DNA of 64,000 nt, taken from the NCBI GenBank assembly GCA_016699575.1, contig CP064979.1:400824-464823 (forward strand), in the 5' to 3' direction. Positions 31,183-53,467 of the stretch are shown piece after piece. The position numbers and the translations under genes were made by a program. Numbering within the stretch: the first letter of the stretch is position 1; every line of letters begins with the position of its first letter. The notes under the pieces were generated by a model. It saw only the letters and a program-made list of their open reading frames with translations, was not told where the DNA came from and ran no database searches. The DNA is from Flavobacteriales bacterium (GTDB lineage: Bacteria; Bacteroidota; Bacteroidia; Flavobacteriales_F; PHOS-HE28).

Positions 31183-34100
31183 TTGTCAGGCGACCTGCGC
31201 GCCCTTTCTTCGCAGCCCATGCCCACCACGTCCTCCCGGCTCCACGCCGTGTTGCGCCGCTACCGTTGGTGGGTGTTCGTCCTTGCCATGGGTTGGACAG
31301 GGACGGCGGGGTGGATAGCCAGCAGCCTGAAGCTGGAGGAAGACCTCTTCCAAGCGCTGCCGCGGGACAAAACCATGGAGCGCTACCGGGCGCTGCTGGA
31401 GTCCTCGGGCAATGCCGATCGCATCGCCATCGGGTTCACCGCCGATTCGTTGCAGTTGGACAGCGCCTTCGCTGCAGCCGACCGATTTGAGGCATCTGTT
31501 TCGGATGCAGAACTGCCTGTGGTGGTCTCGTCCGGCCCGGACCTCGGCCAGGTGGATGCGCTCATCGACGGCCTACTGGCGCGCCTGCCCGCCATGGCGG
31601 ATAGTGCAGCTGTGGAGCGGTTCGCAGCCAGTGACAGCGCCGCCTTGAACGCCATCCTGGCGAAGGCATTGGAGCATCTCTCCTCCCCTTCCGGCATGCT
31701 TTCGGAACCGCTGGTCTTGGGCGACCCGGCCGGTCTGCTCGGAGAAAAGCTGAGCGTTCTCAAGAGCCTTGGTGGCATGGGCGGCCTCACCGTGGTCGAC
31801 GGCCGCTTCGTTGCGCGGGACAACCGCACGGTGTTCGTGCTGGTAGCACCGGACAGTGCTGTGCGGGGCACGCCTGCCGAACGCGCGCTCGTAAACACAC
31901 TCGATTCGTTGAGCGCCGCGGAAAAGGGAGCCACGCAGCCGAGCATGTTCGGAGCACTTCCGGTGAGCATGCGCAACGCAGAGCGCATTGCCGCCGATAG
32001 CCGCAGCACCACGCTCATCTCGCTGGTGCTGGCCCTGGTGCTCGTCGTCTGGTACTTCCGCAGGGCAACTGCGCCGTTGCTCATCCTGCTTCCACCTGCG
32101 TTCGGAGCGGTGAACGCGCTCGCAGGCATGGCGTTGATCCAGGGATCGGTGAGCGCCATCTCCTTGGGTGCCGGTGCGGCGCTGCTCGGAATCGCAATGG
32201 CCTACGGCTTCCACTTCCTGACGCACCTGCGGCACAACGGCAGCGTGGTTAAGGCACTGGAAGAAACGGCAGGTCCGCTCCTCCTCGGCTGCTTCACCAC
32301 CGTGCTGGCGTTCCTTGGCCTGCGCCTGCTCGACAGCCAGTTGCTGAAGGACCTCGGCCTGCTGAGCGCTCTGATGCTGGGGAGCACGGCGCTGTTCGTT
32401 CTGATCGTGCTGCCGTTGATGGTGAAGGACCGCCCGCCGATCCGGCCTAACGATCAACATGCAGCAACGAACAGTGCGTTCGCCAAGGTGCGCAAATGGG
32501 CCATCGTTCCCGTGCTCGTCATCACGGCCATCCTGCTGCCGTGGGCCGATGAAGCCACCTTCGATGATGAGCCTGAGCACCTGGGTTGGATGCCGCCGGA
32601 CATGCGCCGAGCGAACGACCTGCTCTTCGGGAGTGAGCGCGATACACGTACCGTGTTCATCGTTGCTGAAGGCGCCAACGAGGAAGAAGCACGGGCCGCG
32701 TTGGAGCGCGCCGGCAACGCACTGCGCAAGGGTTCACCGGCCATTGCCCAGAACCTCTTCCTCCCCACGGACCTGCAACCGTCCAACGCAACCGTGAAGA
32801 AGAAGCTGGACCACTGGATGTCCCGTTTCGGCAACGCACGCGGCTTGCCGTTGTCCAAACGATTGGAAGAGGCTGCGGAACGACAGGGCTTCACACCAGC
32901 GGCGTTCCATGGCTTTACGCACTGGCTGAACGGGATGCCCAACACCGCCGCCTTGTGGGAACCCATGCCGATCCCTGATGGCCTGCCCGGTGCGACCCCC
33001 GTCGTTGAGAAAGACGGTACCGCGCTGGTGAGCGGATTGCTGCGGTGCGGACCGAGAGAACTGGCCGAGGTGAACGCAACACTGGCTGCGCTCAACCGCA
33101 CGGGAACCGCCAAGGTTGAAGCACTGGACCGCAGCATCATGGGCGAGCGCATGAAGGCCATTGCCCAACGCGACCTTGGAAAAACACTGCTGTTCACCTC
33201 GGTGCTGGTGTTCATCACCTTGCTGATCTCATACGGGCGCATCGAACTCGCGCTCATCACCTTCCTGCCCATGGCCCTGGGCTGGGTATGGATCCTGGGC
33301 ATCTGCGGGCTCTTCGGCATCCCGTTCAACATGGTGAACATCCTGATCTGCACGTTCATCTTCGGGCTGGGCGACGACTACTGCATCTTCACCAGCGACG
33401 GTGTGCTGGAGCGCTACAAGACGGGCAAGGACCATACGCGCGCCAATCGCGATGCCGTCATCCTCACCGGCATCACCACCTTGCTCGGCACCGGCGCGTT
33501 GCTTTTCGCGGAGCACCCGGCCCTGCGTTCCATCGCCACGCTTTCCGTGGTTGGCATGCTCTGTATCCTGGTGATCGCGCTCACCGTGCAGCCGTGGCTA
33601 TACCGCACGTTCATCACCGGTCGCGCCGCGAAGGGCCGATACCCGTTCACTGCGAAGAGCCTGTTCGTTTCGGTGTTCGCCTTCCTCTACTTTCTGTTCG
33701 GCTGCATCCTGCTGGTGGGCCTGTTCCCGGTGCTGCGCATCATGCCGTTCAAATTGATGGCGAAGCGCAAGTTCTACGGTCGCATCATCATGCTCTTCAC
33801 CCGCAGCCTCGTTTACATCATGATGAACGTGAGGAAGGACATCCGTTCGTTCCGCGCGCAGGTGGAGGAACGGCCGAGCATCGTTGTTGCCAACCACGCG
33901 GGCTTCATCGACATCCTGGTGATGCTGATGGTGCACCCGCGCATGCTGATGATGACCAACCGCTGGGTGTGGAACTCGCCCTTCTTCGGTGCTGTGGTAC
34001 GCTTCATGGGCTTCCTGCGCAGCGAAGACACCACCGACGAGAACGTGAAGAACGCGGCCCAGGCCCTGAAGGACGGATTCTCCATCACCGTCTTCCCGGA

Positions 34101-35073
34101 GGGCACACGCAGCGTAACGGGCAAGCTCAACCGCTTCCACAAGGGTTCGTTCTGGCTGGCCGAGGAACTGCAGGCGCCGATGGTGCCCGTGGTTCTGCAC
34201 GGGGTGGGCCACGCGATGCAGAAAGGCGACTGGCTGCTGAAGGACGCCAGCATGGCCATGCGCGCACAGCCGACAATCGAGTGGAACGACGCGCGCTACG
34301 GCAAGGGCCACCGCGAGCGCACCAAGGCCATCAGCGCGGAGTTCAAGGCGGCGTACAACGAATTGCGGATCGAACGCGAAACGCCATGCTATTGGCGCGA
34401 GAAGCTCATCCGCACCTTCCTCTTCAAAGGCCCGGTGCTGGAATGGTACGTGCGCATCAAGAGCCGCATCGACACCGACCTGCACGAGCGGATCCACGCG
34501 CTGGTGCCGTGCGAGGCCAGCGTGGTGGACCTGGGCTGCGGATACGGCATGCTCGGCTACCTGCTGCACTGGAGCAGCGAAGACCGAAGGATCCTGGGCG
34601 TGGACCACGATGCTGCGAAAGTCGATGTGGCGCAGAACGGCTTCTCGCGTGGCGAAGCCCTGCAGTTCGTTCAAGCCGACCTGAGCTCGTTCATCCCACC
34701 GGCCGCTGATGCGTTCATCCTGAAGGACGTGCTCCACTACATGCCCAAGGAAGAACAGGCGGTTCTCCTGAAGCGGTGCAGCGGTGCACTGAACGCCGGC
34801 GGCATGATCCTCGTCCGCGACGGGTTCGCCGATGACGACAGCGCCCACGCCCGGACACGCACCACGGAACTCTTCTCCACACGACTGTTCGGCTTCAACA
34901 AAACGAAGGGGGCGCTGCATTTCCTTCGGCGCGCCGAACTGGAGACCATGGCCGCAGCGAACGGGCTTGTGTGCGAATGGACCGGTGACAGTGACGTGAC
35001 ATCCAACGAACTTGTGATCTTGCGACCCCATCCCCAACCCTTCCCCGGTGGAGAAGGGAGCTTGCGAACATGA
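31183..35073 (+). CDS. tripartite fusion protein: MMPL/RND-like exporter (two TM bundles) + lysophospholipid (PlsC-like) acyltransferase + class I SAM-dependent methyltransferase
   Basis: Residues about 1-800 carry two clusters of about 6 TM helices separated by large soluble loops (MMPL architecture). About 860-1050 carry the HX4D motif ANHAGFID and FPEGTRS. About 1110-1296 carry methyltransferase motif I VVDLGCGYGMLG. It is one uninterrupted 1296-codon frame. Confidence 0.7.
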   Translation: MSGDLRALSSQPMPTTSSRLHAVLRRYRWWVFVLAMGWTGTAGWIASSLKLEEDLFQALPRDKTMERYRALLESSGNADRIAIGFTADSLQLDSAFAAADRFEASVSDAELPVVVSSGPDLGQVDALIDGLLARLPAMADSAAVERFAASDSAALNAILAKALEHLSSPSGMLSEPLVLGDPAGLLGEKLSVLKSLGGMGGLTVVDGRFVARDNRTVFVLVAPDSAVRGTPAERALVNTLDSLSAAEKGATQPSMFGALPVSMRNAERIAADSRSTTLISLVLALVLVVWYFRRATAPLLILLPPAFGAVNALAGMALIQGSVSAISLGAGAALLGIAMAYGFHFLTHLRHNGSVVKALEETAGPLLLGCFTTVLAFLGLRLLDSQLLKDLGLLSALMLGSTALFVLIVLPLMVKDRPPIRPNDQHAATNSAFAKVRKWAIVPVLVITAILLPWADEATFDDEPEHLGWMPPDMRRANDLLFGSERDTRTVFIVAEGANEEEARAALERAGNALRKGSPAIAQNLFLPTDLQPSNATVKKKLDHWMSRFGNARGLPLSKRLEEAAERQGFTPAAFHGFTHWLNGMPNTAALWEPMPIPDGLPGATPVVEKDGTALVSGLLRCGPRELAEVNATLAALNRTGTAKVEALDRSIMGERMKAIAQRDLGKTLLFTSVLVFITLLISYGRIELALITFLPMALGWVWILGICGLFGIPFNMVNILICTFIFGLGDDYCIFTSDGVLERYKTGKDHTRANRDAVILTGITTLLGTGALLFAEHPALRSIATLSVVGMLCILVIALTVQPWLYRTFITGRAAKGRYPFTAKSLFVSVFAFLYFLFGCILLVGLFPVLRIMPFKLMAKRKFYGRIIMLFTRSLVYIMMNVRKDIRSFRAQVEERPSIVVANHAGFIDILVMLMVHPRMLMMTNRWVWNSPFFGAVVRFMGFLRSEDTTDENVKNAAQALKDGFSITVFPEGTRSVTGKLNRFHKGSFWLAEELQAPMVPVVLHGVGHAMQKGDWLLKDASMAMRAQPTIEWNDARYGKGHRERTKAISAEFKAAYNELRIERETPCYWREKLIRTFLFKGPVLEWYVRIKSRIDTDLHERIHALVPCEASVVDLGCGYGMLGYLLHWSSEDRRILGVDHDAAKVDVAQNGFSRGEALQFVQADLSSFIPPAADAFILKDVLHYMPKEEQAVLLKRCSGALNAGGMILVRDGFADDDSAHARTRTTELFSTRLFGFNKTKGALHFLRRAELETMAAANGLVCEWTGDSDVTSNELVILRPHPQPFPGGEGSLRT

Positions 35074-36590
35074 ACGATCGGAAATTCGATGTGGTAGTGA
35101 TAGGCGCAGGCCTTGGCGGACTGGAGGTGGCCTACACCCTGGCCAACGAGGGCATGAGCGTGTGCGTGCTGGAGAAGAACCAGCAGTTAGGCGGCAGCCT
35201 TCAGGTCTTCAGCCGCGAGAAGACCATCTTCGATACGGGCGTGCATTACATCGGTGGCCTGCTGCCCGGCCAGAACCTGCACCGCTACCTCAGCTTCTTC
35301 GGCATCATGGACAAGCTGAAGCTGCAGCGGATGGACATGGACGGGTACGACCTGTGCAGCATGGAGGGCGACCCCAACGAGTACCCGCACGCGCAGGGCT
35401 ACGACAACTTCATCCGCCGCTTGGTGGAGTACTTCCCGGCCGAGAAAGCCGGTATCACGCGCTACACCGAGGAGATCAAACGGATGTGCGGCAAGTTCCC
35501 GCTGTACAACCTGGAGGACACCGACACGCAGGAATGGAAGGATGATGATCTGGGGCTGAACGCGAAGGACTTCATCGCCACCATGGTGAAGGACCCCACG
35601 TTGCGCAACGTGCTGGGCGGCAGCAGCGCGCTCTATGCCGGCGACGGCCGCTACTCACCGTTCTACGTGCATGCCCTGGTGACGAACACGTATATCGAAA
35701 GCTCGTGGCGTTGCATTGACGGGGGCTCGCAGATCGCCAAGCACCTCACGCACAATGCGCGGGAGAAAGGTGCCACGGTGATCGCGCGCAAAGAGGTTTG
35801 CGGCTTCGACTTCCACGGCAACGACATCAGTGCGGTGCGTACCACCGATGGCGATGTGTTCGAGTGCAAGCAGGTCATCGCGAACATCCATCCGGCCACC
35901 CTACTGGGCATGATCGGCCCGGGCCACATCCGGCCGGCCTACCGCAACCGCCTCACATCATTGCGCAACACACCGGGCAGCTTCACGGTTCACGCCGTGA
36001 TGAAGCCCGGCACCTTCCCCTACCTCAACCACAACTACTACCACATGATCGGCACCGACGTGTGGGATGCGGTGCGTTACGATCGGGTGAACTACCCCAA
36101 CAGCTACATGCTGAGCACGCCCAAGAGCACGCGCGGCGGCGACCATGCCGATGCCATCACCATCATGTGCTACATGGACTACGATGAGGTGGCGCAGTGG
36201 GCTGACAGCCACAACACCATCGTGCGGCCCGGCAAGCGCGGCGATGACTACGAGGCGTTCAAGCGGAAGAAGGAGGAACAGGTGCTGAACGTGGTGGAGC
36301 GCAAATTCCCCGGCATCAAGAGCTGCATCCAGAGCGTGCACAGCAACACGCCCCTCTCCTTCCGCGATTTCATCGGCAGCCCCGACGGCAACATGTACGG
36401 CATCATGAAGGACCACAGCGACCCGCTGCGCACCTTCATCCCGCCGCGCACCAAGATCCCGAACCTCCTGCTCACCGGCCAGAACATAAACCTGCACGGC
36501 ATCCTGGGCGTTACCGTGAGCAGCATCGTCACCGCCAGCGAACTGGTGGGCAAAAGCCACCTGCTGAAGAAAGTACGCGCGGCGAGCTGA
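35070..36590 (+). CDS. NAD(P)/FAD-dependent oxidoreductase, phytoene desaturase (CrtI) family
   Basis: VVVIGAGLGGLEVAYTLANEGMSVCVLE dinucleotide-binding fold. The start overlaps the fusion-protein stop (ATGA). Paralog of the gene at 623-2323. Confidence 0.78.
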   Translation: MNDRKFDVVVIGAGLGGLEVAYTLANEGMSVCVLEKNQQLGGSLQVFSREKTIFDTGVHYIGGLLPGQNLHRYLSFFGIMDKLKLQRMDMDGYDLCSMEGDPNEYPHAQGYDNFIRRLVEYFPAEKAGITRYTEEIKRMCGKFPLYNLEDTDTQEWKDDDLGLNAKDFIATMVKDPTLRNVLGGSSALYAGDGRYSPFYVHALVTNTYIESSWRCIDGGSQIAKHLTHNAREKGATVIARKEVCGFDFHGNDISAVRTTDGDVFECKQVIANIHPATLLGMIGPGHIRPAYRNRLTSLRNTPGSFTVHAVMKPGTFPYLNHNYYHMIGTDVWDAVRYDRVNYPNSYMLSTPKSTRGGDHADAITIMCYMDYDEVAQWADSHNTIVRPGKRGDDYEAFKRKKEEQVLNVVERKFPGIKSCIQSVHSNTPLSFRDFIGSPDGNMYGIMKDHSDPLRTFIPPRTKIPNLLLTGQNINLHGILGVTVSSIVTASELVGKSHLLKKVRAAS

Positions 36591-36593
36591 GCG

Positions 36594-37511
36594 TTACTCC
36601 ACGATGGGGATCAGGCCCCGCACACCCATATCGGTGACCACATCGAAGGCGGGCGCACCGGGCTCGTACAGGCCATCGCCGTTGTCCTGCCACTCGAAGC
36701 TGTTGTTGGTGGAGAGGGAAACCGTGATGACCACGTCCTGCGTCTCAGCTCCGGTGATGACGAGCGGTTGCGCGAATTCCCCGGTGACCACGCACGAGCC
36801 CGCCGGGATCGGTGACGTGGAGGCCAAAGGATTCGGGACGGTGGTGGCACCTGCTGGTGCTTGACCGGTCACGGGGGCGGTGGGCACGATCGGATCGATG
36901 ACCTCGAACGCCCAGAATCCCTGCAGCCTGTCGTCGTTCACCGTTACGGACTGCTGGTGCACCACGAATGAACTGATGTAGGTGTTGTAACCGATGAACG
37001 AAGCCACGGTGCCTTCCAGGTCGTAAGTGCCCGTGCCGAACTGGGTGTCGGTGTAACGGAAGTCGATGTCGTAGTTCTGGTAGGCCAAGGACACGCGCAG
37101 CCATTCGTAGGTGCCAGCATCCAGATCGCTCAACGGCACGCTCAGGAACACCTCTCCGTCGCCCGCCTTCACGCTCTGGTTGAAGTCAATGGCGGTGGCG
37201 CCGCCAGCGCTGGTCTCGGCTGCGTGGTAAACAACAGCACCACTGCCCAAGGCCGTCCAAGCGGTCGGAGCGAACTCGACATAGTGCGCGCTCATCTTGT
37301 TGAAGCGGGGGTTTTGTGCAGCATGGCCCGCCGGAATGGTGCTGGTTTGCCCGAGGTTGTCCAAGCGCACCTGGGTGCTATCGAACTTGAACTTCAGCAC
37401 GAGGTTGGGGCCGCTTGGGCCTGGCGACGGCGCAGGTGCGGGGTCCTCCTCCTTCTTGCAGGAGGTAAGCACGGCCGCTACAGCGAGGGCGGCGAGAAGG
37501 GCAGTACGCAT
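36594..37511 (-). CDS. lipoprotein, hypothetical
   Basis: MRTALLAALAVAAVLTSC lipobox, then a Pro/Ala-rich linker. The longer ORF start at 37802 would run through the MarR promoter region. Confidence 0.5.
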   Translation of the reverse strand: MRTALLAALAVAAVLTSCKKEEDPAPAPSPGPSGPNLVLKFKFDSTQVRLDNLGQTSTIPAGHAAQNPRFNKMSAHYVEFAPTAWTALGSGAVVYHAAETSAGGATAIDFNQSVKAGDGEVFLSVPLSDLDAGTYEWLRVSLAYQNYDIDFRYTDTQFGTGTYDLEGTVASFIGYNTYISSFVVHQQSVTVNDDRLQGFWAFEVIDPIVPTAPVTGQAPAGATTVPNPLASTSPIPAGSCVVTGEFAQPLVITGAETQDVVITVSLSTNNSFEWQDNGDGLYEPGAPAFDVVTDMGVRGLIPIVE

Positions 37512-37572
37512 GGTAGGTGGAAGTCTGGTCCGCAAAGAACGCATGAGCCCTTGAAGAAATTTCCCACCATAG

Positions 37573-37584
37573 TATGCATGCATA
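37573..37584. promoter_or_regulatory. palindromic operator candidate TATGCATGCATA upstream of the MarR gene
   Basis: Perfect 12 bp palindrome 46 bp upstream of the MarR start codon. A near-identical TTATGCGTGCATAA lies upstream of the acyl-CoA dehydrogenase gene at 53373. Confidence 0.5.
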
Positions 37585-37618
37585 ACAAATGCGGATACCT
37601 TGGGGGCCAAGTCAACCG

Positions 37619-38053
37619 GGGATGAAGCCTGAAGAGACGATCGACTTTCCGATCCGCCGTGTGTGGAGCCGGATTTCACGCATCTACAACACCGAGGCGG
37701 CCAAGTACGGTGGCAGCATGGCCGTGGGCCAGATCCTGCTGAACATCGAGCCGGAGGGCACGCCCAGCACCAAGCTTGGTCCCAAGATGGGCATGGAGGC
37801 ACGCAGCCTTGTGCGCACGTTGCAGGCCATGGAGGACGAAGGATTGATCAAGCGCATCGCCGACAAGAGCGACAAGCGCGTGGTGCGCATCCACCTCACT
37901 GCGAAGGGCAAGCAGATGCGCGACGTGAGCCGCAACACCGTGATCAGATTCAACGAGGCGGTGCAGAGCCGTTTCACGACGGCGCAACTGAACAACTTCC
38001 GGCAGGTGATGTCGGAACTGGACCATATTCTCGAACACGAACAACTTTTCTGA
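37619..38053 (+). CDS. MarR family transcriptional regulator
   Basis: Winged-HTH pattern typical of MarR (...MAVGQILLNIEP...LVRTLQAMEDEGLIKRIADKSDKRVVRIHLTAKGK). Confidence 0.8.
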   Translation, partial: GMKPEETIDFPIRRVWSRISRIYNTEAAKYGGSMAVGQILLNIEPEGTPSTKLGPKMGMEARSLVRTLQAMEDEGLIKRIADKSDKRVVRIHLTAKGKQMRDVSRNTVIRFNEAVQSRFTTAQLNNFRQVMSELDHILEHEQLF

Positions 38054-38056
38054 TAC

Positions 38057-38150
38057 TCACCACAGAGGCACAGAGGACACCGAGAAGAACAAGATGAACA
38101 CCGTTGCTCATCAATCGCATTCCTCCGTGCCCTCTGTGCCTCTGTGGTGA
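38057..38150 (+). promoter_or_regulatory. 20 bp perfect inverted repeat (long hairpin) in the fadB leader, enclosing an 18-codon ORF
   Basis: TCACCACAGAGGCACAGAGG ... CCTCTGTGCCTCTGTGGTGA are exact reverse complements with a 54 nt loop. The loop holds ATG...TGA encoding MNTVAHQSHSSVPSVPLW. Confidence 0.6.
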
Positions 38151-38165: not shown

Positions 38166-40544
38166 ATGAGCAAACGAAACATCCGCAAAGTCGCCGTGCT
38201 CGGCAGCGGCGTCATGGGCAGCCGCATTGCCTGCCACTTCGCGAACACCGGCACCGAAGTGCTGCTGCTCGACATTCCAGCCAAGGAAGGTCCGCGCAAC
38301 AAGATCGTGGACGACGCACTCGCCGCCGCGATCAAGAGCAGTCCGGCGCCCCTGTACGATGCACGCTTCGCCAAGCGCATCAGCACCGGCAACTTCGACG
38401 ACGACCTGCCCAAGATCAAGGACTGCGACTGGATCATCGAGGTCGTGATCGAGCGGCTCGACATCAAGCAGCAACTGCTGGAGAAGGTGGAGAAGCACCG
38501 TACACCGGGCACGCTCATCACCACCAACACCAGCGGCATCCCGATCCACGCCATCAGCGCGGGCCGAAGCGACGACTTCCGCAGGCACTTCTGCGGCACG
38601 CACTTCTTCAACCCGCCGCGCTACCTGCCGCTGCTGGAGCTGATCCCCGGTCCGGACACCGACCCCGCGGTGCTCGCCTTCCTGGAGGACTACGGCCAGC
38701 GCATCCTTGGCAAGGTCACGGTGATGGCCAAGGACACGCCCGCCTTCGTGGCCAACCGCATCGGCGTGTTCGGCATCATGGACGTGTTCCACCTCGTCAC
38801 CGACATGGGCCTTACGGTGGAGGAAGTGGACCGCCTCACCGGCCCCGTGATCGGCCACCCGAAGAGCGCCACCTTCCGCACCGCCGACGTGGTGGGCCTC
38901 GACACGCTGGTGAAAGTCGCGCAGGGCGTGAAGGACAACTGCCCGCACGACGAGCGCAACAGCCTCTTCAGCATTCCGGAGTACCTGCAGCAGATGGTGG
39001 AGAAGAACATGCTCGGCAGCAAGACCGGCAAGGGCTTCTTCTTCAAGGACCGCAACTCACCCAAGGGCGAGATCCTCTCCCTCGACCTGAAGACGCTGGA
39101 GTACAAGCCACAGGTGAAGCCCAAGTTCGCCACGCTGGACGCGGCGAAAAAGGTGGATGACCTGCGCGAGCGCCTCAAACTGGTGTACAACGGCACCGAC
39201 AAGGCCGGCGAATTCTACCGCCGTTCGTTCCAGGCGATGTTCGCATACGTGAGCCACCGCATCCCCGAGATCAGCGACGAGCTGTACAAGATCGACGACG
39301 GCATGCGCGCCGGCTTCGGCTGGGAGGCGGGTCCGTTCGAGACCTGGGACGCCATCGGAGTGCAACAAGTGAAAGATGAAATAGGAAAGCTGAAAGCTGA
39401 AAGTGGAAATGCGCTGACCATCGCGCCATGGGTGGATGAGATGCTTGCGGCTGGTCATACTTCGTTCTACAAAGTGGAGCAGGGCCAACGCCTTTACTAC
39501 GATGTCGCGAGCAAGAGCTACAAGCCGGTGCCACGCGCGGAAGGCTTGATCGTTCTCAACGAATTGCCAGAAAGCAGCATCGTGTGGAAGAACAGCGCCG
39601 CCACCGTGCGTCACCTCAGCGATGGCATCCTGAGCGTGAGCTGGACGAGCAAGATGAACACCATCGGCGCGGAGGTGATCCAGGGCCTCAACAAAGCCAT
39701 CGACCTCGCCGAGCAGGGCTACAAAGGCCTGGTGGTCTACAACGACGGCGCCAACTTCAGCGCGGGCGCCAACGTGGGCATGATCTTCATGATGGCCGTG
39801 GAGCAGGAGTACGACGACCTGGAGATGGCCGTGCGCACCTTCCAGAACACCATGATGCGCATGCGCTACAGCAGCATCCCCGTGGTGGCGGCCCCGCACC
39901 AACTGTGCCTGGGCGGCGGCACCGAGCTCTGCCTGCACGCGGACAAGGTGGTGGCGCACGCCGAGACCTACATGGGCCTGGTGGAATTCGGCGTGGGCGT
40001 GATCCCCGGCGGCGGCGGCACCAAGGAATTCGCCCTGCGCCTCGCCGACGAGCTGAAGGAGGGCGACATCCGCATCAACGCCATGCGCGAGCGCTTCCTC
40101 ACCATCGGCCAGGCCAAGGTGGCCACCAGCGGGCACGAGGCTTTCACGTTAGGCTACTTGCGTCGCGGCCAGGACGAGGTCATTGTCAGCCGCGCCCACC
40201 AGCTGGCCTACGCCAAGGCCTGCGCGCTGGAGCTGTGGAACAAGGGCTACACCAAGCCCGCACCGCGTAAGGACATCAAGGTGCTCGGCCAGGAAGGCCT
40301 CGGCATCGTGTACGTGGGCGCCAACAGCATGCTCAGCGGCAACTACATCAGCCAGCACGATGCGCTGATCAGCGAGAAGCTGGGCTATGTGCTATGCGGG
40401 GGTGACCTGAGCGAGGCTACGGAGGTCTCCGAGCAATACCTGCTGGACCTGGAGCGGAAAGCCTTCGTGGAGCTGTGTATGCAGCGGAAGACGCTCGAGA
40501 GACTTCAGTCGATCATTACTACGGGGAAAGTGTTGCGGAATTGA
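38166..40544 (+). CDS. fadB: bifunctional 3-hydroxyacyl-CoA dehydrogenase / enoyl-CoA hydratase (HCDH N-terminal, ECH C-terminal)
   Basis: N-terminal KVAVLGSGVMGSRIA Rossmann motif and HFFNPP. C-terminal crotonase fold VAAPHQLCLGGGTELCLHAD. About 792 aa. Confidence 0.9.
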   Translation: MSKRNIRKVAVLGSGVMGSRIACHFANTGTEVLLLDIPAKEGPRNKIVDDALAAAIKSSPAPLYDARFAKRISTGNFDDDLPKIKDCDWIIEVVIERLDIKQQLLEKVEKHRTPGTLITTNTSGIPIHAISAGRSDDFRRHFCGTHFFNPPRYLPLLELIPGPDTDPAVLAFLEDYGQRILGKVTVMAKDTPAFVANRIGVFGIMDVFHLVTDMGLTVEEVDRLTGPVIGHPKSATFRTADVVGLDTLVKVAQGVKDNCPHDERNSLFSIPEYLQQMVEKNMLGSKTGKGFFFKDRNSPKGEILSLDLKTLEYKPQVKPKFATLDAAKKVDDLRERLKLVYNGTDKAGEFYRRSFQAMFAYVSHRIPEISDELYKIDDGMRAGFGWEAGPFETWDAIGVQQVKDEIGKLKAESGNALTIAPWVDEMLAAGHTSFYKVEQGQRLYYDVASKSYKPVPRAEGLIVLNELPESSIVWKNSAATVRHLSDGILSVSWTSKMNTIGAEVIQGLNKAIDLAEQGYKGLVVYNDGANFSAGANVGMIFMMAVEQEYDDLEMAVRTFQNTMMRMRYSSIPVVAAPHQLCLGGGTELCLHADKVVAHAETYMGLVEFGVGVIPGGGGTKEFALRLADELKEGDIRINAMRERFLTIGQAKVATSGHEAFTLGYLRRGQDEVIVSRAHQLAYAKACALELWNKGYTKPAPRKDIKVLGQEGLGIVYVGANSMLSGNYISQHDALISEKLGYVLCGGDLSEATEVSEQYLLDLERKAFVELCMQRKTLERLQSIITTGKVLRN

Positions 40545-40600
40545 ACCGACAAAACGACGATCCCGTGTCACACGCGTTCAGCTATAAGCTCGCCAAGATG

Positions 40601-41059
40601 AAAGGTGGTCTTGGTCACTATGGTGAGATCACAGTGGTGGTTGAAGCTAGACTTGCGGATGAGCCGACTATTGTAGAGGCATACAGCGGAACAGGATGGG
40701 AAAGGCAAGGATATGCGCACACTATACCGGACAAGGGTTTCGATGATTGGAAATCGGCGATCCGAATGGGCATCGAATATGCTCTTCGTCGCTTGGAGGA
40801 ACAGAGCATCCGCGTTACAGTGAAAGAAGCCACTGGCTTGATCACTGACACGAACGCGACAATACTTGCCTATGCAGCGTCAAGAGCCCTCTTGGAGAAT
40901 CTTCCCAACCTGGAATCTCAGACGGAAAAGGACCGATTCGAGCAGCTTGTTTTCAGCAGTTTCAACTATGAAGACAGCGCCCAATTGGACCTGGAGCAGT
41001 TCCAGTTAATAGGCCAACTCAGGCCGAAGTCACCATATAGGGTTCAGGCAAATGGCTAA
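40601..41059 (+). CDS. hypothetical protein (island gene A)
   Basis: 152 aa from the MKGGLGHYGE Met. Local GC is about 50% against a host figure above 60%. No motif recognised. An alternative start at 40475 would overlap fadB. Confidence 0.4.
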   Translation, partial: KGGLGHYGEITVVVEARLADEPTIVEAYSGTGWERQGYAHTIPDKGFDDWKSAIRMGIEYALRRLEEQSIRVTVKEATGLITDTNATILAYAASRALLENLPNLESQTEKDRFEQLVFSSFNYEDSAQLDLEQFQLIGQLRPKSPYRVQANG

Positions 41060-41086
41060 GCATAGCCAGCAATATCATCTCATCGG

Positions 41087-41235
41087 TTGGGGCGTGCCGG
41101 CTCGCCCTTCGGCTCCGCAGAGCCGCGCTCAGGGTCTCGCCGTCGCGCTTGGAGTTCAGCCCGGGCTCGGACCCGGGCCTACAAGTCCTCGCGCGGATTA
41201 CCGCGCTGTGGGCTTTCCGCTGCAATCGCTCACGC
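41087..41235. repeat. intergenic repeat element, copy A (TTGGGGCGTGCC...hairpin...CGCGGATTACCGCG...GGCTTTCCGCTG)
   Basis: Shares a 12-mer and a roughly 60 nt 3' module with copy B at 46639-46740. The ATTA-loop hairpin shows compensatory changes between the two copies. Confidence 0.55.
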
Positions 41236-41239
41236 ATGA

Positions 41240-41488
41240 GTGCAAGCACGTGAACCTATGATTGACTTCGACCTAAATCGAACATGGGTCTCATTCACAT
41301 GTCCATCGTGTGCCTATATGGATGAAGTTCAGGTCGTGGATGTACGCTCAGAGAAGACCATATTCTGCCACAACTGTAAGTCCTCGATCCGACTCGTCGA
41401 CGGTGATGCTTCCGTGCACACCGGAGTTCGCGACATCAACGACTCCATGACTGACCTATTGAATACGTTCAAAAAGCTCGGACGCTGA
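41240..41488 (+). CDS. small C4 zinc-ribbon protein (island gene B)
   Basis: CPSC...(21 aa)...CHNC. 82 aa. The stop overlaps the next start (ATGA). Confidence 0.45.
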   Translation: MQAREPMIDFDLNRTWVSFTCPSCAYMDEVQVVDVRSEKTIFCHNCKSSIRLVDGDASVHTGVRDINDSMTDLLNTFKKLGR

Positions 41489-42450
41489 TGTACTACAATC
41501 ACAATCTCAGAACCAACCTACAGGAGTGGAAGAATCGCGTTCAGCGCGCTTCAACAAGCAACTTCGGATACCAGATAGACCTGTTGCTGAAGCACATTCA
41601 AGAGGAGCCTGCACTCAATGCGCTCATGGTTGAAGCCGCTCAGCAATTCCCGCATGAGGACGAGCACTTGCAGGAACGAATAAATCTCTATGACTCCAGT
41701 CAGCACATTCCATTCTCTGGACAAGCGGATCGCGCAGCTTTTTCCCAAGCTCTCTTGCATTGGATCATTAGGGAACATGGTGTCGAGTCCGTACCGCATA
41801 TGACCTTATTCATAGGAAGAAAGGATGTCCTCGGAGGAATAGTAGAAGACTGCGTGTCTCCAATTCTGGACTACTTACATGACCGCTTAGACAAGTCTAG
41901 TTCCACGTTGTACCTGCTTGAGAAATACAAGCGTCGGACGGAGTGGTTCATGAAGGACTCTCTCAGAACACGATATCTGTTGGCTGAGAAAGAATACGAG
42001 AAAATCTTCGAGGATGACCTGCGACTATTCCTGTTTGACCAAGGAATCGACTATCCCTTCTCAACCCCTAGTAGTCCTTCTGGCAGAGCTGACGTTGTCG
42101 GCGCTATTGACACCTCGGATCCGCTTGTTGTCGAAATCAAGATTTTCGACCGAAGCAAGAGCTATGGGAAGGATCGTGTACGAAGTGGTCTTGCTCAGGT
42201 CATGAAGTACGTAAATGACTACAACAAGGACTTTGGCTACCTAGTCATCTTCAATGCCGACAACGCTGAATTGCACTTTCAACTCGAAGACATCAGCAAG
42301 GCCTTCCCACCGATGCTTGTCTATAACAACAAGCGATACTTCTTCATAGTGGTCAACATCGGTGAGCATGTTGCAGCTAGCAAAGTCGGCAAGCAAGAGG
42401 TGATTGAACTGTCAACAGATTTCCTGGTATCCAAAGCAGAACTCGCGTGA
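41488..42450 (+). CDS. hypothetical protein with a C-terminal PD-(D/E)xK nuclease-like motif (island gene C)
   Basis: GRADVVGAIDTSDPLVVEIKIFD...GLAQVMKY...GYLVIFN fits a D...(D/E)xK restriction-endonuclease-fold core. The N-terminal roughly 190 aa has no recognisable motif. Low GC. Confidence 0.45.
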   Translation: MYYNHNLRTNLQEWKNRVQRASTSNFGYQIDLLLKHIQEEPALNALMVEAAQQFPHEDEHLQERINLYDSSQHIPFSGQADRAAFSQALLHWIIREHGVESVPHMTLFIGRKDVLGGIVEDCVSPILDYLHDRLDKSSSTLYLLEKYKRRTEWFMKDSLRTRYLLAEKEYEKIFEDDLRLFLFDQGIDYPFSTPSSPSGRADVVGAIDTSDPLVVEIKIFDRSKSYGKDRVRSGLAQVMKYVNDYNKDFGYLVIFNADNAELHFQLEDISKAFPPMLVYNNKRYFFIVVNIGEHVAASKVGKQEVIELSTDFLVSKAELA

Positions 42451-42601
42451 GGGAGAGCAGCGGAAAGCTCGGAGGCCTGTCATCAGGCCGAGGACCTGCC
42501 TGTCCGGCAGGCAGGCTTGCAGCGGATAGCCCGACGGCGCTGCTCTTGTGCGCCGGCACGCCCAACACTTCGACAAGTTCGGTGTGACGACCACCAAGCC
42601 A

Positions 42602-43444
42602 ATGAAAAAGCGCGCGATCACCGTCAAAGGCATCCCCGTCACCGTTGTGGAGCGGAACGAGCAGGACTACATCTCGCTCACCGACATGGTGCAGGGCTTC
42701 GAGGGCGGCAGCGCGCTGATCGAGCAATGGTTGCGCAACAAGGACACGGTGCTCTTCCTGGGTGTGTGGGAGCAGCTGAACAACCCGGCGTTCAATTCCC
42801 TCGAATTCGAGGGAATTGGGAACGCGGCCGGCCGCAACAGTTTCTACCTGTCGGTGAAGAAGTGGATCGACGCCACCGGTGCGATCGGGCTGCACGCGCG
42901 CGCTGGCGGACATGGCGGCACGTATGCGCACAAGGACATCGCCTTCGAGTTCGGTTCGTGGTTGAGCCCAGAGTTCAAGCTGTACCTGATCAAGGAGTTC
43001 CAACGGCTGAAGGAAGCGGAGGCCAGCAACCAGTCGCTGGAATGGAACCTGCAGCGCACTCTGGCCAAGGTCAACTACCGGATCCACACGGATGCCATCA
43101 AGGAGCATTTGATCCCACCGGTGCTCAGCAAGGCGCGCATCAGCGGGGTGTACGCTACCGAAGCCGACCTGCTGAACGTAGCCCTGTTCGGCCTCACCGC
43201 TTCCGAGTGGAAACGGGCCAACCCATCACTTGCCGGCAACATGCGCGACCGCGCCACACTGGAACAACTGGTCGTGCTTTCCAACCTGGAGAGCATCAAC
43301 GCCGTGATGATCCAGCAGGGCCTCGGATCAGCGGAGCGCCTGCAACAACTGAACACGACCGCCATCGGACAGATGAGATCGCTCACCGCAGGTCGCGCAG
43401 CGGACAAGCTGCTGGCGGCCGGCAAGAAGAAACCAAAGAACTAA
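42602..43444 (+). CDS. KilA-N domain protein
   Basis: KRAITVKGIPVTVVERNEQDYISLTDMVQG is a typical KilA-N N-terminal DNA-binding domain. The C-terminal half is of unknown function. Confidence 0.65.
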   Translation: MKKRAITVKGIPVTVVERNEQDYISLTDMVQGFEGGSALIEQWLRNKDTVLFLGVWEQLNNPAFNSLEFEGIGNAAGRNSFYLSVKKWIDATGAIGLHARAGGHGGTYAHKDIAFEFGSWLSPEFKLYLIKEFQRLKEAEASNQSLEWNLQRTLAKVNYRIHTDAIKEHLIPPVLSKARISGVYATEADLLNVALFGLTASEWKRANPSLAGNMRDRATLEQLVVLSNLESINAVMIQQGLGSAERLQQLNTTAIGQMRSLTAGRAADKLLAAGKKKPKN

Positions 43445-43450
43445 GACCCC

Positions 43451-43618
43451 ATGAACGCATACATCATCGCCGGTTTCCGCAGCGCAGTGGGCAAAGCGCC
43501 CTGCCATCGGCAGGCAGGCGCACGCAAATTCCGTTTCACGCGTCCGGATGACCTGGCCGCGCACGTGGTGAACCACCTGGTGGGTTCGGCGCCCCATAAA
43601 CCACACCCAACCACCTGA
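43451..43618 (+). pseudogene. truncated duplicate of the thiolase 5' end (first roughly 45 codons, then a frameshifted tail)
   Basis: ATGAACGCATACAT...GTGGTGAACCACCTGGTGGG is about 90% identical to 45441-45565. It contains a 22 bp insertion and terminates after 55 codons. Confidence 0.7.
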
Positions 43619-43637
43619 CTTTCAGCACGAAACTACA

Positions 43638-43672
43638 TTTGTAACACTTTCGTATACATTTGTGTTACAAAA
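43638..43672. promoter_or_regulatory. AT-rich inverted repeat TTTGTAACAC-N15-GTGTTACAAA upstream of AbiEi (candidate autoregulatory operator)
   Basis: 10 bp perfect inverted repeat seen in the sequence about 70 bp upstream of the antitoxin start. AbiEi antitoxins are known to bind inverted repeats in their own promoters. Confidence 0.45.
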
Positions 43673-43741
43673 CAGGCCCCGATACGCCTTCGCGCTGCCC
43701 TCGCACAGCAACCCACCTAAACACACGCTTCGGCGCACAAC

Positions 43742-44374
43742 GTGAAACGCCCCTCGGTAGAAAAGCTGGTACTGGCGCGCATGGAAGAGCGTGGCCGTGG
43801 CAGCGTGCTCACCCCCAAGGATTTCTGCGACCTGGGTGGGCGCAGCGCGGTGGCCGTGGCCTTGCACCGGCTGGTGAAGAAGGAGGTGGTGCGCAACATC
43901 GGCAACGGCTTGTACTTCTTCCCGGAGCTGGGCGGGATGTTCGGGGAGTCGATAGCGGGTACCTACGAGATCGTCGCCGCCATTGCCAAGCGCGATGGGA
44001 TCACGATACGCGAGACACATGCTTACGCGTCCAACATCACGGGCATAAGCACCCAGGTGCCTACGCGTGTTGCCTTTCAAACCGATGGTCGTTCCCGAAA
44101 GATCCGTTTGAAGCCCATGATACCGGGCGGACGTGCGAATGAGATCATTCTCCGACGCACCAGTTCGCGCTACATGCGGGCGCGCACCGAGGTGGGCTAC
44201 TTGGTGATCCAGGGCCTGCGTGACTACGGTCGAAAGAACATCGGTAAGGAGGAATATGCCGAGCTGCTCAGACGGCTGCCCCCTCACGGAAAAGAGGATC
44301 TGAAAAAGGACCTGGACATCGCCCCGGTCTGGATCGCGGACATCATGCGTCGATTGATCGCTGAAGCACCATGA
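43742..44374 (+). CDS. abiEi: AbiEi-family antitoxin / transcriptional regulator (type IV toxin-antitoxin)
   Basis: N-terminal wHTH-like region, about 200 aa, 4 bp overlap with the downstream nucleotidyltransferase gene. GTG start (alternative ATG at 43781). Confidence 0.65.
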   Translation: MKRPSVEKLVLARMEERGRGSVLTPKDFCDLGGRSAVAVALHRLVKKEVVRNIGNGLYFFPELGGMFGESIAGTYEIVAAIAKRDGITIRETHAYASNITGISTQVPTRVAFQTDGRSRKIRLKPMIPGGRANEIILRRTSSRYMRARTEVGYLVIQGLRDYGRKNIGKEEYAELLRRLPPHGKEDLKKDLDIAPVWIADIMRRLIAEAP

Positions 44375-45444
44375 GCGCGCATCCATTCCTCCATTTACCG
44401 GAAGCACGGCAACGTTCATTGCTTATTCGTGCCAACAATCTACTCCCCCTCGCGATATCCAGTATCGAGAAGGATGTCTACGTCTGCCTCTTTCTGGAGA
44501 AAGTGATGGCACTTCCTGGCATCGGCGAGCATCTCACGTTCAAAGGCGGCACGTCACTCTCCAAGGCGCACAAGATCACGGACCGTTTCTCCGAGGATGT
44601 GGATCTGGTAGTTGATCGCCATGTGCTTGGTCTCGCGGAAGATGGCATCCCCGGCGGACATCATTCTCCGAGGCAACAGAAGGAGCGCGCAAAGAAGATC
44701 GCGAAAGCCTGTCGAACATGGGCTGCAAATACACTCATTCCCGCCTTACGCACTTCCCTCGCAACTGAACTGCGCAATGGCTCATGGAGCCTCGACCTGA
44801 ACGCCGACAGCGATAACCATGAGACAGTGCTCTCATTCGGCTATCCCAAGCTTTTCGTACCGGACGGCGAGTACATCCTGGACCATGTGAAGGTGGACCT
44901 CGTGGCGAAGGCCGATGCTTGGCCAAGCACAACGATACCTGTGTGCGCTTACGTACATGAGCTCTTCACGGAAGAGTTCGGCGATGGTTCATTCCCAGTC
45001 CGCACACTGGAAGCTGAACGCACGTTGATCGAAAAAGCACTGTTGCTTCACGAAGTTCTGGTCCAGCGTCCGGATGGTCCACGTCGTCGATTGGCGCGGC
45101 ACTACTTCGACCTGTACTTCCTCCATCGCGCCGGTGCAACAACAAAAGCCATCGCCCGAGCTGACCTGTATCCTGCTGTCGTTCAACAGCGCAGCATCTA
45201 CTACCGCTATCCCGGAGTGGACTACGATGCGCTATTGACAGAAGGCTTCAGCATCATTCCGCAAGGCGCGGCACGTGCTGCTTGGCATAGCGACTACGAC
45301 GGCATGCAGAGCGATATGTTCTATGGAAACGTGCCAGCCTTCGACGACATCATGACCGCCATGGAACAGTTCCAAGCAACGTTCCGCGAGCATCTTCAAC
45401 AAACGACATCAGCGCCGAGCAGTCGGCAACACGAACACCCATGA
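44371..45444 (+). CDS. abiEii: AbiEii/AbiGii-family nucleotidyltransferase toxin (DUF1814)
   Basis: KGGTSLSKAHKITDRFSEDVDLVV matches the GGT(A/S)L...R.SED(I/V)D pol-beta-like nucleotidyltransferase core of AbiEii. Confidence 0.75.
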   Translation: MSAHPFLHLPEARQRSLLIRANNLLPLAISSIEKDVYVCLFLEKVMALPGIGEHLTFKGGTSLSKAHKITDRFSEDVDLVVDRHVLGLAEDGIPGGHHSPRQQKERAKKIAKACRTWAANTLIPALRTSLATELRNGSWSLDLNADSDNHETVLSFGYPKLFVPDGEYILDHVKVDLVAKADAWPSTTIPVCAYVHELFTEEFGDGSFPVRTLEAERTLIEKALLLHEVLVQRPDGPRRRLARHYFDLYFLHRAGATTKAIARADLYPAVVQQRSIYYRYPGVDYDALLTEGFSIIPQGAARAAWHSDYDGMQSDMFYGNVPAFDDIMTAMEQFQATFREHLQQTTSAPSSRQHEHP

Positions 45445-46616
45445 ACGCATACATAATCTCCGGTTTCCGTTCCGCCGTAGGCAAAGCGCCCCGCGGCAAA
45501 TTCCGTTTCACGCGTCCGGATGACCTGGCCGCGCACGTGGTGAACCACCTGGTGGGCTCGGTGCCCGGGCTGGAGCGCGACCGCATCGACGATGTGATCG
45601 TGGGCAACGCCACGCCCGAGGCCGAGCAGGGCCTGAACATCGGCCGCATGATCAGCCTGATGGGCCTGAACACCGACAAGGTGCCGGGCATGACGGTGAA
45701 CCGCTACTGCAGCAGCGGCAGCGAGACCATCGCCATTGCCGCGGCCAAGATCCACAGCGGGCAGGCCGACGTGATCGTGGCGGGCGGCGTGGAGTGCATG
45801 AGCCCGATCCCCTTCGGCGGCTGGCGCATCGTGCCGAACGCCAAGGTGGGCAAGGCGCAGCCCACGTACTACTGGGGCATGGGCCTCACCGCCGAGGCCG
45901 TGGCGCGCGACTTCAAGGTGAGCCGGGAGGACCAGGACGCCTTCAGCCTGCGCAGCCACGAGAAGGCGCTGGCCGCGATCAGCTCCGGCAAGTTCAAAGA
46001 CGAGATCGTGCCCTACACCGTGGAGCGCGTGTACCTGGACGCGAAGGAGAAGCGCCAAGTGGAGCAATACGTGGTGGACACCGATGAAGGTCCGCGCGCG
46101 AGCACCCTGGAGGCGCTGGCTAAGCTGAAGCCCGTGTTCGACGCGAAGGGCAGCGTGACGGCAGGCAACGCCAGCCAGACGAGCGATGGCGCGGCCTTCG
46201 TGCTGGTAGTGAGCGAGCGCATGCTGAAGCAGCTCAATGTGAAGCCGATCGCGCGCCTGCTCTCCTACCATGTGGCCGGGGTGGAGCCGCGCATCATGGG
46301 CATCGGTCCGGTGGCGGCAGTGCCGAAGGCGCTGGAGAAGGCCGGGCTGAAGCTGAGCGACATCGGGCTGTTCGAGCTGAACGAGGCCTTCGCGAGCCAA
46401 TCGCTGGCGGTGGTGCGCGAGCTGGGCATCGACCCGGAGATCGTGAACGTGAACGGCGGCGCGATCGCGCTGGGGCATCCGTTGGGGTGCACGGGCGCGA
46501 AGCTGAGCGTGCAGTTGTTCAATGAGATGCGGCGGCGGAAGCAGAAGTATGGGGTGGTGACGATGTGCGTGGGGACGGGGCAGGGGGCGGCGAGTGTGTT
46601 TGAGTTGTTGAATTGA
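45441..46616 (+). CDS. fadA: acetyl-CoA C-acyltransferase (thiolase II)
   Basis: NRYCSSGSETIA (active-site Cys), ...GNASQTSDGAA..., and C-terminal NVNGGAIALGHPLGCTGA. Confidence 0.9.
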   Translation: MNAYIISGFRSAVGKAPRGKFRFTRPDDLAAHVVNHLVGSVPGLERDRIDDVIVGNATPEAEQGLNIGRMISLMGLNTDKVPGMTVNRYCSSGSETIAIAAAKIHSGQADVIVAGGVECMSPIPFGGWRIVPNAKVGKAQPTYYWGMGLTAEAVARDFKVSREDQDAFSLRSHEKALAAISSGKFKDEIVPYTVERVYLDAKEKRQVEQYVVDTDEGPRASTLEALAKLKPVFDAKGSVTAGNASQTSDGAAFVLVVSERMLKQLNVKPIARLLSYHVAGVEPRIMGIGPVAAVPKALEKAGLKLSDIGLFELNEAFASQSLAVVRELGIDPEIVNVNGGAIALGHPLGCTGAKLSVQLFNEMRRRKQKYGVVTMCVGTGQGAASVFELLN

Positions 46617-48650: not shown

Positions 48651-48756
48651 GGCGCTCCACCTTTCGCCTTCCTGTTGTATGTTGTGGAATGCCAAGCGAC
48701 GAGGAACTCGTCAACGGCCAAGACCAATCCTTCGCTAAAGCTTCGGCTTGCAAATC

Positions 48757-49611
48757 ATGAGCGCCCTGCTTCCTTCCTCCACCCTCTTTGAACAGCACCA
48801 GATCCGCAGACTCTACGATGAAGCCACAGAGAAGTGGTGGTTCTCGGTGATCGACATCGTCGGAGCCCTGATCGATCAGCCCGACTACCAAGCTGCGCGC
48901 AACTACTGGAAGGTGCTGAAGCACAGGCTGGCCCAAGAGGGAAGTCAACTGGTTACAGATTGTAACCGGTTGAAGTTGCCCGCTGATGATGGCAAGATGC
49001 GGGATACGGATGTGGCCAAAGCCGAAACGCTACTACGACTGGTCCAGTCGGTGCCCAGCCCGAAGGCCGAACCCATCAAACTCTGGCTGGCGAAGGTGGG
49101 GTACGAGCGCATGCAAGAAATGGCCGACCCGAGCTTGGGCCTTGACCGCGCCCGCGAGCTATGGCGCAAGCACGGCCGCAGCGAGAAGTGGATCCAGCAG
49201 CGGATGATGGGCCAGGAGACGCGCAACAAGCTGACGGACTATTGGAAAGAGCACGACATCAAGGAAGGTGAAGAGTTCGCGATCCTCACCAACATCATTC
49301 ACCAGGAATGGAGTGGTGTGACGGTGAAGGACCACAAGGCGATCAAGGGCCTGAAGACCCAGAACCTCCGCGACCACATGACCGAAGCCGAACTGATCTT
49401 CACGGCGCTGGCGGAGATGAGCACCCGGCAGATCGCGGAGACCGAGCAGGCCAAGGGCATGCCGAAGAACAAGGTGGCGGCACGCAAAGGCGGCGGGATC
49501 GCGAAGAAGGCGCGGCTGGAGTTGGAGGAGAAGACCGGAAGGCCGGTGGTGTCGGGGAGCAATTTCTTGCCGCCGAAGAAGAAACAGGTCACAAAAGGCA
49601 AAAGGAAATGA
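48757..49611 (+). CDS. Bro-N domain protein (DNA-damage-inducible protein D-like, phage antirepressor-type N-terminus)
   Basis: LFEQHQIRRLYDEATEKWWFSVIDIVGAL is a Bro-N/DinD-like N-terminal domain. Lys-rich C-terminus. Confidence 0.55.
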   Translation: MSALLPSSTLFEQHQIRRLYDEATEKWWFSVIDIVGALIDQPDYQAARNYWKVLKHRLAQEGSQLVTDCNRLKLPADDGKMRDTDVAKAETLLRLVQSVPSPKAEPIKLWLAKVGYERMQEMADPSLGLDRARELWRKHGRSEKWIQQRMMGQETRNKLTDYWKEHDIKEGEEFAILTNIIHQEWSGVTVKDHKAIKGLKTQNLRDHMTEAELIFTALAEMSTRQIAETEQAKGMPKNKVAARKGGGIAKKARLELEEKTGRPVVSGSNFLPPKKKQVTKGKRK

Positions 49612-50738: not shown

Positions 50739-51361
50739 GACGAGGGATCATGAACAACGCACGAACACCCAGCTCCTTGAAGTCGGCGACCAAAGTTCGA
50801 TCCGCCAATGCGAATTCGCGCAAGCGGGAAGGAGCGCACATGCACATACCGTTCGCCCTCGCACAAGGCTCTTCGCAGCAGGACCACTTCAGTTACCTGC
50901 ACTTCACTTCGGGTACCGAACAGCGGGAGACTTTCCCAAGCACGCTCGAATTGCGCGGGCTTCAAACCAGCCGCGATGGTGAGGTACGGGTGCTCGGTCT
51001 CGCGGATGGCATCACGCAAGGCCTCGTTGGCCATCAGCGCCGCAACGATAGGTGTACGCACCTTGGCGATGGCGTCCTTCTGTACCGGGTCGATGTAGAT
51101 GGTGCGCTTGTCGGGGAAGCGGGTGATGCCGTCGTAGTGCAAGGTAAAGCTGCGCTTACCCTTCGAGCCGAGGGCGATGGCTTGGATGATGGCAGATCCG
51201 TGCTCGGCTGGCAGATCGAGGAAGCACAGCGTGATGTGCGGCGGCGTGTTGCGCCCGCTGAAGGAACCGACGCGCTCGTGCAACACGGTGCGCCGGCGGT
51301 CCACTTTGGCTGCAAGCGCCAGGGATGGAAGGATGGTGAGGAGATAGCGGTGTTTCATCAT
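50735..51361 (-). CDS. 2H phosphoesterase superfamily protein (LigT/2'-5' RNA ligase-like), paralog 1
   Basis: Two H-x-(T/S)-x motifs: PPHITLCF and HPYLTIAAG. Confidence 0.65.
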   Translation of the reverse strand: MMKHRYLLTILPSLALAAKVDRRRTVLHERVGSFSGRNTPPHITLCFLDLPAEHGSAIIQAIALGSKGKRSFTLHYDGITRFPDKRTIYIDPVQKDAIAKVRTPIVAALMANEALRDAIRETEHPYLTIAAGLKPAQFERAWESLPLFGTRSEVQVTEVVLLRRALCEGERYVHVRSFPLARIRIGGSNFGRRLQGAGCSCVVHDPSS

Positions 51362-53335: not shown

Positions 53336-53372
53336 GAGCGGTCAAACTTCACCATGACCGCTTGGAAATTTA

Positions 53373-53386: not shown

Positions 53387-53467
53387 CTTTAACCCGAAGC
53401 AACCGTAGAACATCAGGGGCATTTCGATCATCTGATCGTCCGATCCCTGATCAACTGATCGACACCC

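Follow-up and report, generated by a model that had tools for sequence, protein, structure and literature searches.

The window analyzed here, a 64-kb stretch of DNA from an uncultured high-GC Flavobacteriales bacterium (GC ~0.61), carries the same short palindrome in front of a gene for a MarR-type regulator and in front of a gene for an acyl-CoA dehydrogenase, and this raises the question of whether the palindrome is an operator through which fatty acid breakdown is controlled. Beta-oxidation genes of Flavobacterium psychrophilum are induced by fish mucus and plasma (PMC9723704). In the literature, we found no transcription factor for fatty acid catabolism in Flavobacteriia or other aerobic Bacteroidota, and neither a MarR-type fad regulator in Bacteroidetes nor the motif itself, the known fad regulators encountered being of the GntR or TetR type. 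The dyad, unchanged at the same places in approximately 100 related bacteria, is very likely the site that the regulator uses to switch the genes for fatty acid breakdown.

The two dyads and the genes beside them

Exactly two matches to TATGCNNGCATA occur in the 64 kb of the window; after dinucleotide shuffling, the mean is 0.02, and not one of 100 shuffled sequences contains as many as two. The predicted operator O1, TATGCATGCATA (37573-37584; extended form GTATGCATGCATAA, 37572-37585), lies in the marR promoter, and the predicted operator O2, TATGCGTGCATA (53374-53385; extended form TTATGCGTGCATAA, 53373-53386; context TTATGCGTGCATAAC, 53373-53387), lies in the spacer of the fadE promoter (PfadE). 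Both are intergenic and each stands in a divergent promoter region, the first flanked by a lipoprotein gene (36594-37511, minus strand) and marR (37622-38053, plus strand) and the second by a LigT-like gene (52790-53335, minus strand) and fadE (53468-55258, plus strand). The original prediction had placed a dyad at both of these promoters, and the sequences are indeed present there. Its distances are amended here: the copy said to lie 46 bp from marR is 37 nt from it, as the homologues (mostly 143 amino acids) fix the start at the ATG at 37622, and the 95 bp given for fadE holds if counted from the start of the motif, whereas the distance from the end of the dyad to the ATG at 53468 is 82 nt. 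The center of the dyad had been taken to be a free N2, but this dinucleotide is R-Y in all 87 related sites described below, which makes the unit a gapless inverted repeat of TATGCR that can be extended to KTATGCRYGCATAM.

The genes had been called correctly as a MarR regulator (PF01047), a FadN/FadB-type enzyme directly 3' of marR, and the acyl-CoA dehydrogenase FadE. The fadB-like gene fadN (38166-40544, plus strand), encoding a 3-hydroxyacyl-CoA dehydrogenase/enoyl-CoA hydratase, is the first enzyme gene of the marR operon, and fadE, encoding a Bacillus-type acyl-CoA dehydrogenase of 596 amino acids (NF058590, 802.9 bits versus a cut-off of 600), forms the second dyad-bearing transcription unit. 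The ancestral order is marR-fadN-fadA-fadE. The third gene of the ancestral operon, fadA (45441-46616, plus strand), encodes an acetyl-CoA C-acyltransferase (thiolase). Here it lies behind a 4.9-kb island, overlaps the abiEii stop codon, and lacks a dyad, so that control over one of the three core enzymes may be lost in this genome. The island (40545-45440) is lower in GC and splits fadA from fadN; its genes encode a KilA-N protein (42548-43444), an AbiEi-like/DUF6088 protein (43742-44374), and AbiEii (44371-45444, overlapping the fadA start), and a second copy of the first ~150 bp of fadA (45438-45566) is present at 43448-43594. In relatives, fadN and fadA are between 11 bp and 6.4 kb apart, and the gap thus looks like an insertion hot spot.

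The divergent lipoprotein has 305 amino acids and no Pfam match; 64 of 75 relatives carry its gene upstream of marR, mostly as the direct neighbor. The conserved -7 box of the lipoprotein gene (TAGCTTTG, minus strand, in most relatives) lies approximately 80 to 90 nt from the dyad, and the LigT-like gene adjoins fadE in some loci only, so that occlusion of the divergent promoters by the dyad is not supported. Two paralogous genes for LigT-like 2H phosphoesterases (50735-51361 and 52790-53335, both minus strand) lie 1.4 kb apart in the window, one of them divergent from fadE, a pairing also found in L018, L050, L055, and L071. Further upstream, a gene for a 1,296-amino-acid fusion of MMPL transporter, acyltransferase, and methyltransferase domains (31183-35073) is followed by one for an amine-oxidase-like flavoprotein (35070-36590). 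This module is without a dyad and looks like one for lipid or pigment biosynthesis and export beside the fad locus.

Conservation of the dyad and the extent of the proposed regulon

Related marR loci were fetched by similarity to the MarR protein alone, without reference to the motif, and the exact dyad was found upstream of marR in all 81 protein-retrieved loci (50 to 97% identity). At each of the 75 species-level genome loci (61 to 97% identity), it lies 35 to 60 nt before the marR start; leftward of it, these loci cannot be aligned, such that the flanks diverge and the 12 bases stay fixed. Five more distant loci (GC 0.43 to 0.46; ~50 to 63% identity to the window MarR, as read from a 119-sequence alignment), among them that of the cultured Halocola ammonii, all carry it as well; in each, marR-fadN-fadA-fadE form a compact operon, and a single dyad is present, before marR.

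Within 1.07 Mb of related DNA, made up of the 75 loci plus the window, 87 exact copies of the motif were counted, of which 76 precede marR and 11 precede fadE, so that no other position has one; copies with one mismatch number just two, and the chance expectation, scaled from the shuffles of the window, is well below one. A comparable frequency inside coding regions had been named as grounds for abandoning the prediction, and in this related DNA the motif is never found in coding sequence. Both arms are invariant over the 87 sites, as expected for a dimeric binder. The central dinucleotide is AC (30), GC (25), AT (17), or GT (4) at the marR sites and GT at 8 of the 11 fadE sites. The proposal of a shared operator, with autoregulation of MarR and control of beta-oxidation, thus gains support from phylogenetic footprinting, which is evidence of a comparative kind. 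In one locus (L079, 8001-8501), the database MarR call (166 amino acids) starts inside the dyad; the true start is probably at the conserved MKPEET approximately 20 codons further down, an annotation error that hides the operator.

The fadE genes illustrate where a second site is kept. Among those with an upstream region of their own, the dyad is found in 11 of 16 cases (it is kept in L008, L010, L018, L025, L028, L050, L055, L057, L065, and L071), and its context, GGAAATTTGTTATGCGTGCATAACTTTA, is strongly conserved. No second dyad is present where fadE lies directly 3' of fadA (L037, L068, L076, L077, L079, and L080) or where the two genes are separated by an 80-nt gap (L078). This restriction of the second dyad to detached fadE genes is the pattern expected if the operator is needed only where fadE has its own promoter. 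The other 5 of the 16 separate fadE genes (L051, L058, L062, L063, and L066) show no dyad within the locus, and in three of these a Bro-N gene stands immediately before fadE (L051, 18164-19096; L062, 17079-17957; L066, 17979-18863). The same gene is found in the window at 48748-49611; it looks like a mobile gene that displaces the regulated promoter. Degenerate dyads were sought before fadA and before those fadE genes that lack the exact one, and neither of the two one-mismatch copies in the 1.07 Mb lies there. The fadE leader of the window (53420-53467) contains five GATC motifs in ~45 nt (ATCTGATCGTCCGATCCCTGATCAACTGATCGAC) and matches no family in an Rfam search; such a leader also precedes fadE in L008, L051, L057, L058, L062, and L063, several of them without a dyad, and is absent in L010, L018, L025, and L028.

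Additional insight into the reach of the site comes from metagenome contigs, which were scanned for the perfect 16-mer GTTATGCRYGCATAAC and yielded at least 120 stretches. Among the 120 matches listed, 28 are directly upstream of marR (18) or fadE (10), and the 18 listed marR orthologues (34 to 71% identity) are mostly followed by fadN-fadA-fadE. A further 19 listed matches lie beside other acyl-CoA or lipid genes, namely, those for KASIII/FabH-like proteins (6), EtfB (4), NMO/FabK-like proteins (3), the 2,4-dienoyl-CoA reductase FadH (3), 4HBT thioesterases (2), and a short acyl-CoA dehydrogenase (1), with the gene identities confirmed by Pfam. In total, 47 of the 120 listed matches adjoin acyl-CoA or lipid genes, and approximately 99 of the 120 fall outside any long open reading frame, a count tempered by the fact that AT-rich palindromes are commoner between genes in any case. 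These extra regulon members were found by a motif-first search and come from low-GC relatives, not from the lineage of the window. One site thus stands before several beta-oxidation transcription units: marR-fadN(-fadA) and fadE in this lineage and, from the motif-first search in low-GC relatives, etfB, fadH, the thioesterase, and the short acyl-CoA dehydrogenase.

The regulator, its promoters, and a proposed mechanism

The proposed binder of the dyad is the MarR protein itself, a winged-helix protein of 143 amino acids whose closest homologues are all from metagenome-assembled genomes of uncultured Flavobacteriales. Its sequence matches the MarR domain (PF01047) with 32.2 bits (gathering score, 24.6), and its Pfam matches are only of the MarR and winged-helix types, with no GntR or TetR N-terminal DNA-binding domain. 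No curated NCBIfam equivalog claims it, the scores being 42.2 bits versus a cut-off of 120 for SlyA (NF002926) and 27.3 versus 200 for FabT (NF050133), and a profile search of the PDB returned remote matches only, the best being SlyA (E = 2e-9). An AF2 model built from 20 close sequences reached a pLDDT of 48 and was discarded; with the 119-sequence alignment, the pLDDT was 93.6. In Foldseek, this monomer model aligns with DNA-bound MepR (TM 0.86), SlyA (0.79, 22% identity), E. coli MarR (0.79), and FabT (6jbx, 0.78) and with CouR in complex with p-coumaroyl-CoA (5cyv, 0.80), and the predicted fold is that of a canonical MarR protein, with dimerization helices and a winged helix. The helix-turn-helix and wing are its most conserved part, with T47, P48, S49, T50, P54, M56, G57, E59, S62, R65, D84, and R86 invariant in the 119 sequences; an invariant DNA-reading region fits an unchanging operator.

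A scan for sigma-70 promoters around marR found nothing. This is expected, as the organism uses Bacteroidetes -33/-7 promoters, and the sequence was hence read against the consensus TTTG-N19-TAnnTTTG, whose -7 box spans -12 to -5 (PMC9723704). On this reading, the predicted -7 box of the marR promoter (PmarR) is TACCTTGG (37596-37603, plus strand), 19 nt after the TATG of the dyad, and the start site would lie near 37608. As PmarR thus reads TATG-N19-TACCTTGG, the left arm of the dyad occupies the -33 position. A TAnnTT box is located 22 to 25 nt from the start of the dyad in all 81 marR promoters (23 nt in 57 of them), and in low-GC relatives the -7 box is a perfect TATATTTG or TATCTTTG. For PfadE, consensus suggests TTG (53362-53364, plus strand) as the -33 element and, 19 nt downstream, TAACTTTA (53384-53391, plus strand) as the -7 box, with a start site predicted near 53396. 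The arrangement is then TTG-N19-TAACTTTA, with its spacer taken up by the dyad, which also covers the first two bases of the -7 box. As for the -33 element, the 11 fadE sites have TTTG or TTGG at -13 to -10. Where fadE promoters of the high-GC lineage have a single dyad, those of low-GC relatives (metagenome contigs L127, L163, L167, L171, and L199) have two, which bracket a perfect TATATTTG -7 box, one at -33 and the other just downstream of the box. Across the predicted promoters, the dyad therefore takes positions of approximately -35 to -24, -22 to -11, and +4 to +15, and as all three lie inside the polymerase footprint and are mutually out of helical phase, they suggest repression by occlusion rather than activation. 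A role of the dyad as a hairpin of its own was rejected, as a 12-nt gapless palindrome gives no stable stem-loop and the PmarR copy lies upstream of the predicted start.

A different element separates marR from fadN. The gap between them holds a long hairpin (38057-38150, plus strand; -54.2 kcal/mol, z = -7.8) with 28-nt arms of CACAGAGG-like 8-nt units, for which no U-tail, no Rfam family, and no second copy in the window were found. An equally stable hairpin occupies the same gap in 56 of 70 high-GC relatives (loci among L001 to L072), with different arm sequences built of approximately three tandem 8-nt units, for example, CACAGAGG, GCAACGAC, or GCAAAGAC; in 14 of the 70, at most 2 nt separate marR from fadN. 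When 30 sequences are aligned, pairing is seen in 93% of cells, both-sided changes occur at 10 of 17 pairs, and double-sided cells number 81 versus 33 +/- 4 in shuffles, with slid controls pairing at 31 to 54%; the variants fall into few sequence types and so represent a small number of independent events. A search of all loci for inverted repeats was dominated by stretches of N and was used qualitatively. After the hairpin, there is no promoter-sized gap before fadN, and the hairpin is probably part of the marR-fadN transcript, where it may be an attenuator, a processing site, or a stabilizer.

When these observations are taken together, the adjacent MarR quite likely has the dyad TATGCRYGCATA as its operator and would repress its own operon (marR-fadN, ancestrally with fadA and fadE) and the separate fadE promoter. 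A MarR dimer would bind TATGCRYGCATA in the marR-fadN(-fadA) and fadE promoters and, while bound, keep RNA polymerase off PmarR and PfadE, so that the regulator represses itself together with the beta-oxidation enzymes. An effector signaling fatty acid supply would then free MarR from the DNA and lead to derepression. The likeliest such signal is a long-chain acyl-CoA, at about even odds in our estimate; the proposal is made by analogy with the remaining fad regulators and with those members of the MarR family whose ligands are CoA thioesters. That this MarR is the binder, and that it represses rather than activates, is what we infer, repression being read from the position of the sites. Autoregulation is likewise judged by position, a perfect palindrome of 12 to 14 bp adjoining the regulator's own promoter 37 nt before marR.

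The dyad could be real and yet be bound by another transcription factor encoded elsewhere, with marR merely a member of its regulon. The link between MarR and the site comes from comparison, and the motif-first scan does show sites at many loci without marR on the contig. We nevertheless consider this improbable, as the dyad accompanies marR at all 81 loci gathered without bias and at 18 others of greater distance, over a GC range of 0.33 to 0.62 and identities of 34 to 97%, as the 12-bp palindrome has the 5-2-5 geometry of a SlyA site, and as the residues that read DNA are invariant like the site itself. In the MarR family, moreover, a self-operator directly upstream of the regulator gene is the rule. 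A mere coincidence of two dyads, or a generic promoter or sequence feature without a specific role, could be entertained from the window itself, which has just two copies. It is refuted by the 0.02 copies expected there, by 87 exact copies in two promoter classes against two one-mismatch copies in 1.07 Mb, and by 12 bases that stay fixed while their flanks diverge, and we give it practically no weight.

If MarR is the binder, it might still act as an activator or dual regulator, for instance, through a surrogate -33 contact at PmarR, where the left arm stands in for the -33 TTTG. Some MarR proteins, such as SlyA and RovA, can activate (PMC2156107, PMC5797941). Against this stand the three non-phased positions in the core promoter, including those over and downstream of the -7 box, and the promoters in which two copies bracket that box, a pattern that fits occlusion and is at odds with activation; we consider an activating or dual role improbable as well. 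Repression by the adjacent MarR through promoter occlusion hence remains the preferred reading.

Comparison with known regulators of fatty acid metabolism

A broader proposal would be that MarR and its invariant TATGCRYGCATA form a master fatty acid regulator of aerobic Bacteroidota, controlling fadN, fadA, fadE, fadH, etfBA, and the thioesterase together with FabH-like and FabK-like genes, and coupled in the high-GC lineage to an intercistronic hairpin of conserved structure and drifting sequence that sets the ratio of regulator to enzyme. We hold this to be a toss-up. If true, bacteria of this group would have arrived independently, by way of MarR, at an answer to the task of the GntR-type FadR of enterobacteria and of the TetR-type regulators FadR, PsrA, and FadP found outside them. 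What is new is the assignment (protein subfamily, site, pathway, and phylum), the mechanism of a promoter-occluding MarR repressor being textbook. For the Bacteroidota, with their unusual promoters and few mapped regulons, the result supplies a concrete and testable regulator-operator pair (an exact 12- to 14-bp site, a predicted promoter geometry, and a candidate effector class), makes regulon prediction possible in thousands of genomes, and offers a candidate inducible promoter/repressor system for genetic tools.

Among MarR proteins, SlyA and RovA are alike in that SlyA is the best sequence match among solved structures and that its site, TTAGCAAGCTAA, is a 5-2-5 palindrome (PMC2156107, PMC5797941) with the same layout as the dyad; the window protein differs in that it does not reach the NCBIfam cut-off for SlyA. 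In enterobacteria, SlyA is a counter-silencer of H-NS and not a metabolic regulator. FabT of Streptococcus pneumoniae shares the MarR family, a role in fatty acid metabolism, a palindromic site, and the fold (TM 0.78). However, FabT controls the genes for synthesis with acyl-ACP as corepressor, and at 27 bits versus a cut-off of 200 for its model, the window protein is not a FabT. Similarly, CouR of Rhodococcus jostii and Rhodopseudomonas palustris is a MarR repressor of a CoA-dependent catabolic operon with a CoA thioester as effector (TM 0.80), but it senses aromatic acyl-CoA and is only 21% identical; the comparison made here is one of overall fold.

A likeness of regulon is seen with FadR (YsiA) of Bacillus subtilis, which has the same enzyme set, the order fadN-fadA-fadE, and the logic of a local beta-oxidation repressor, and which is released from beta-oxidation promoters by acyl-CoA. 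In contrast to the MarR protein here, it belongs to the TetR family, and its operator sequence is unrelated. FadR of E. coli is likewise a master fad regulator with a palindromic operator, and a possible link to fatty acid synthesis through the KASIII-like and FabK-like neighbors recalls its dual role; it is, however, of the GntR family, its gene is not the first of a fad operon, and no relation of sequence or fold was found. The window MarR would thus work like both FadRs yet belongs to neither family, and with it MarR would join the protein families that have independently evolved fad regulation.
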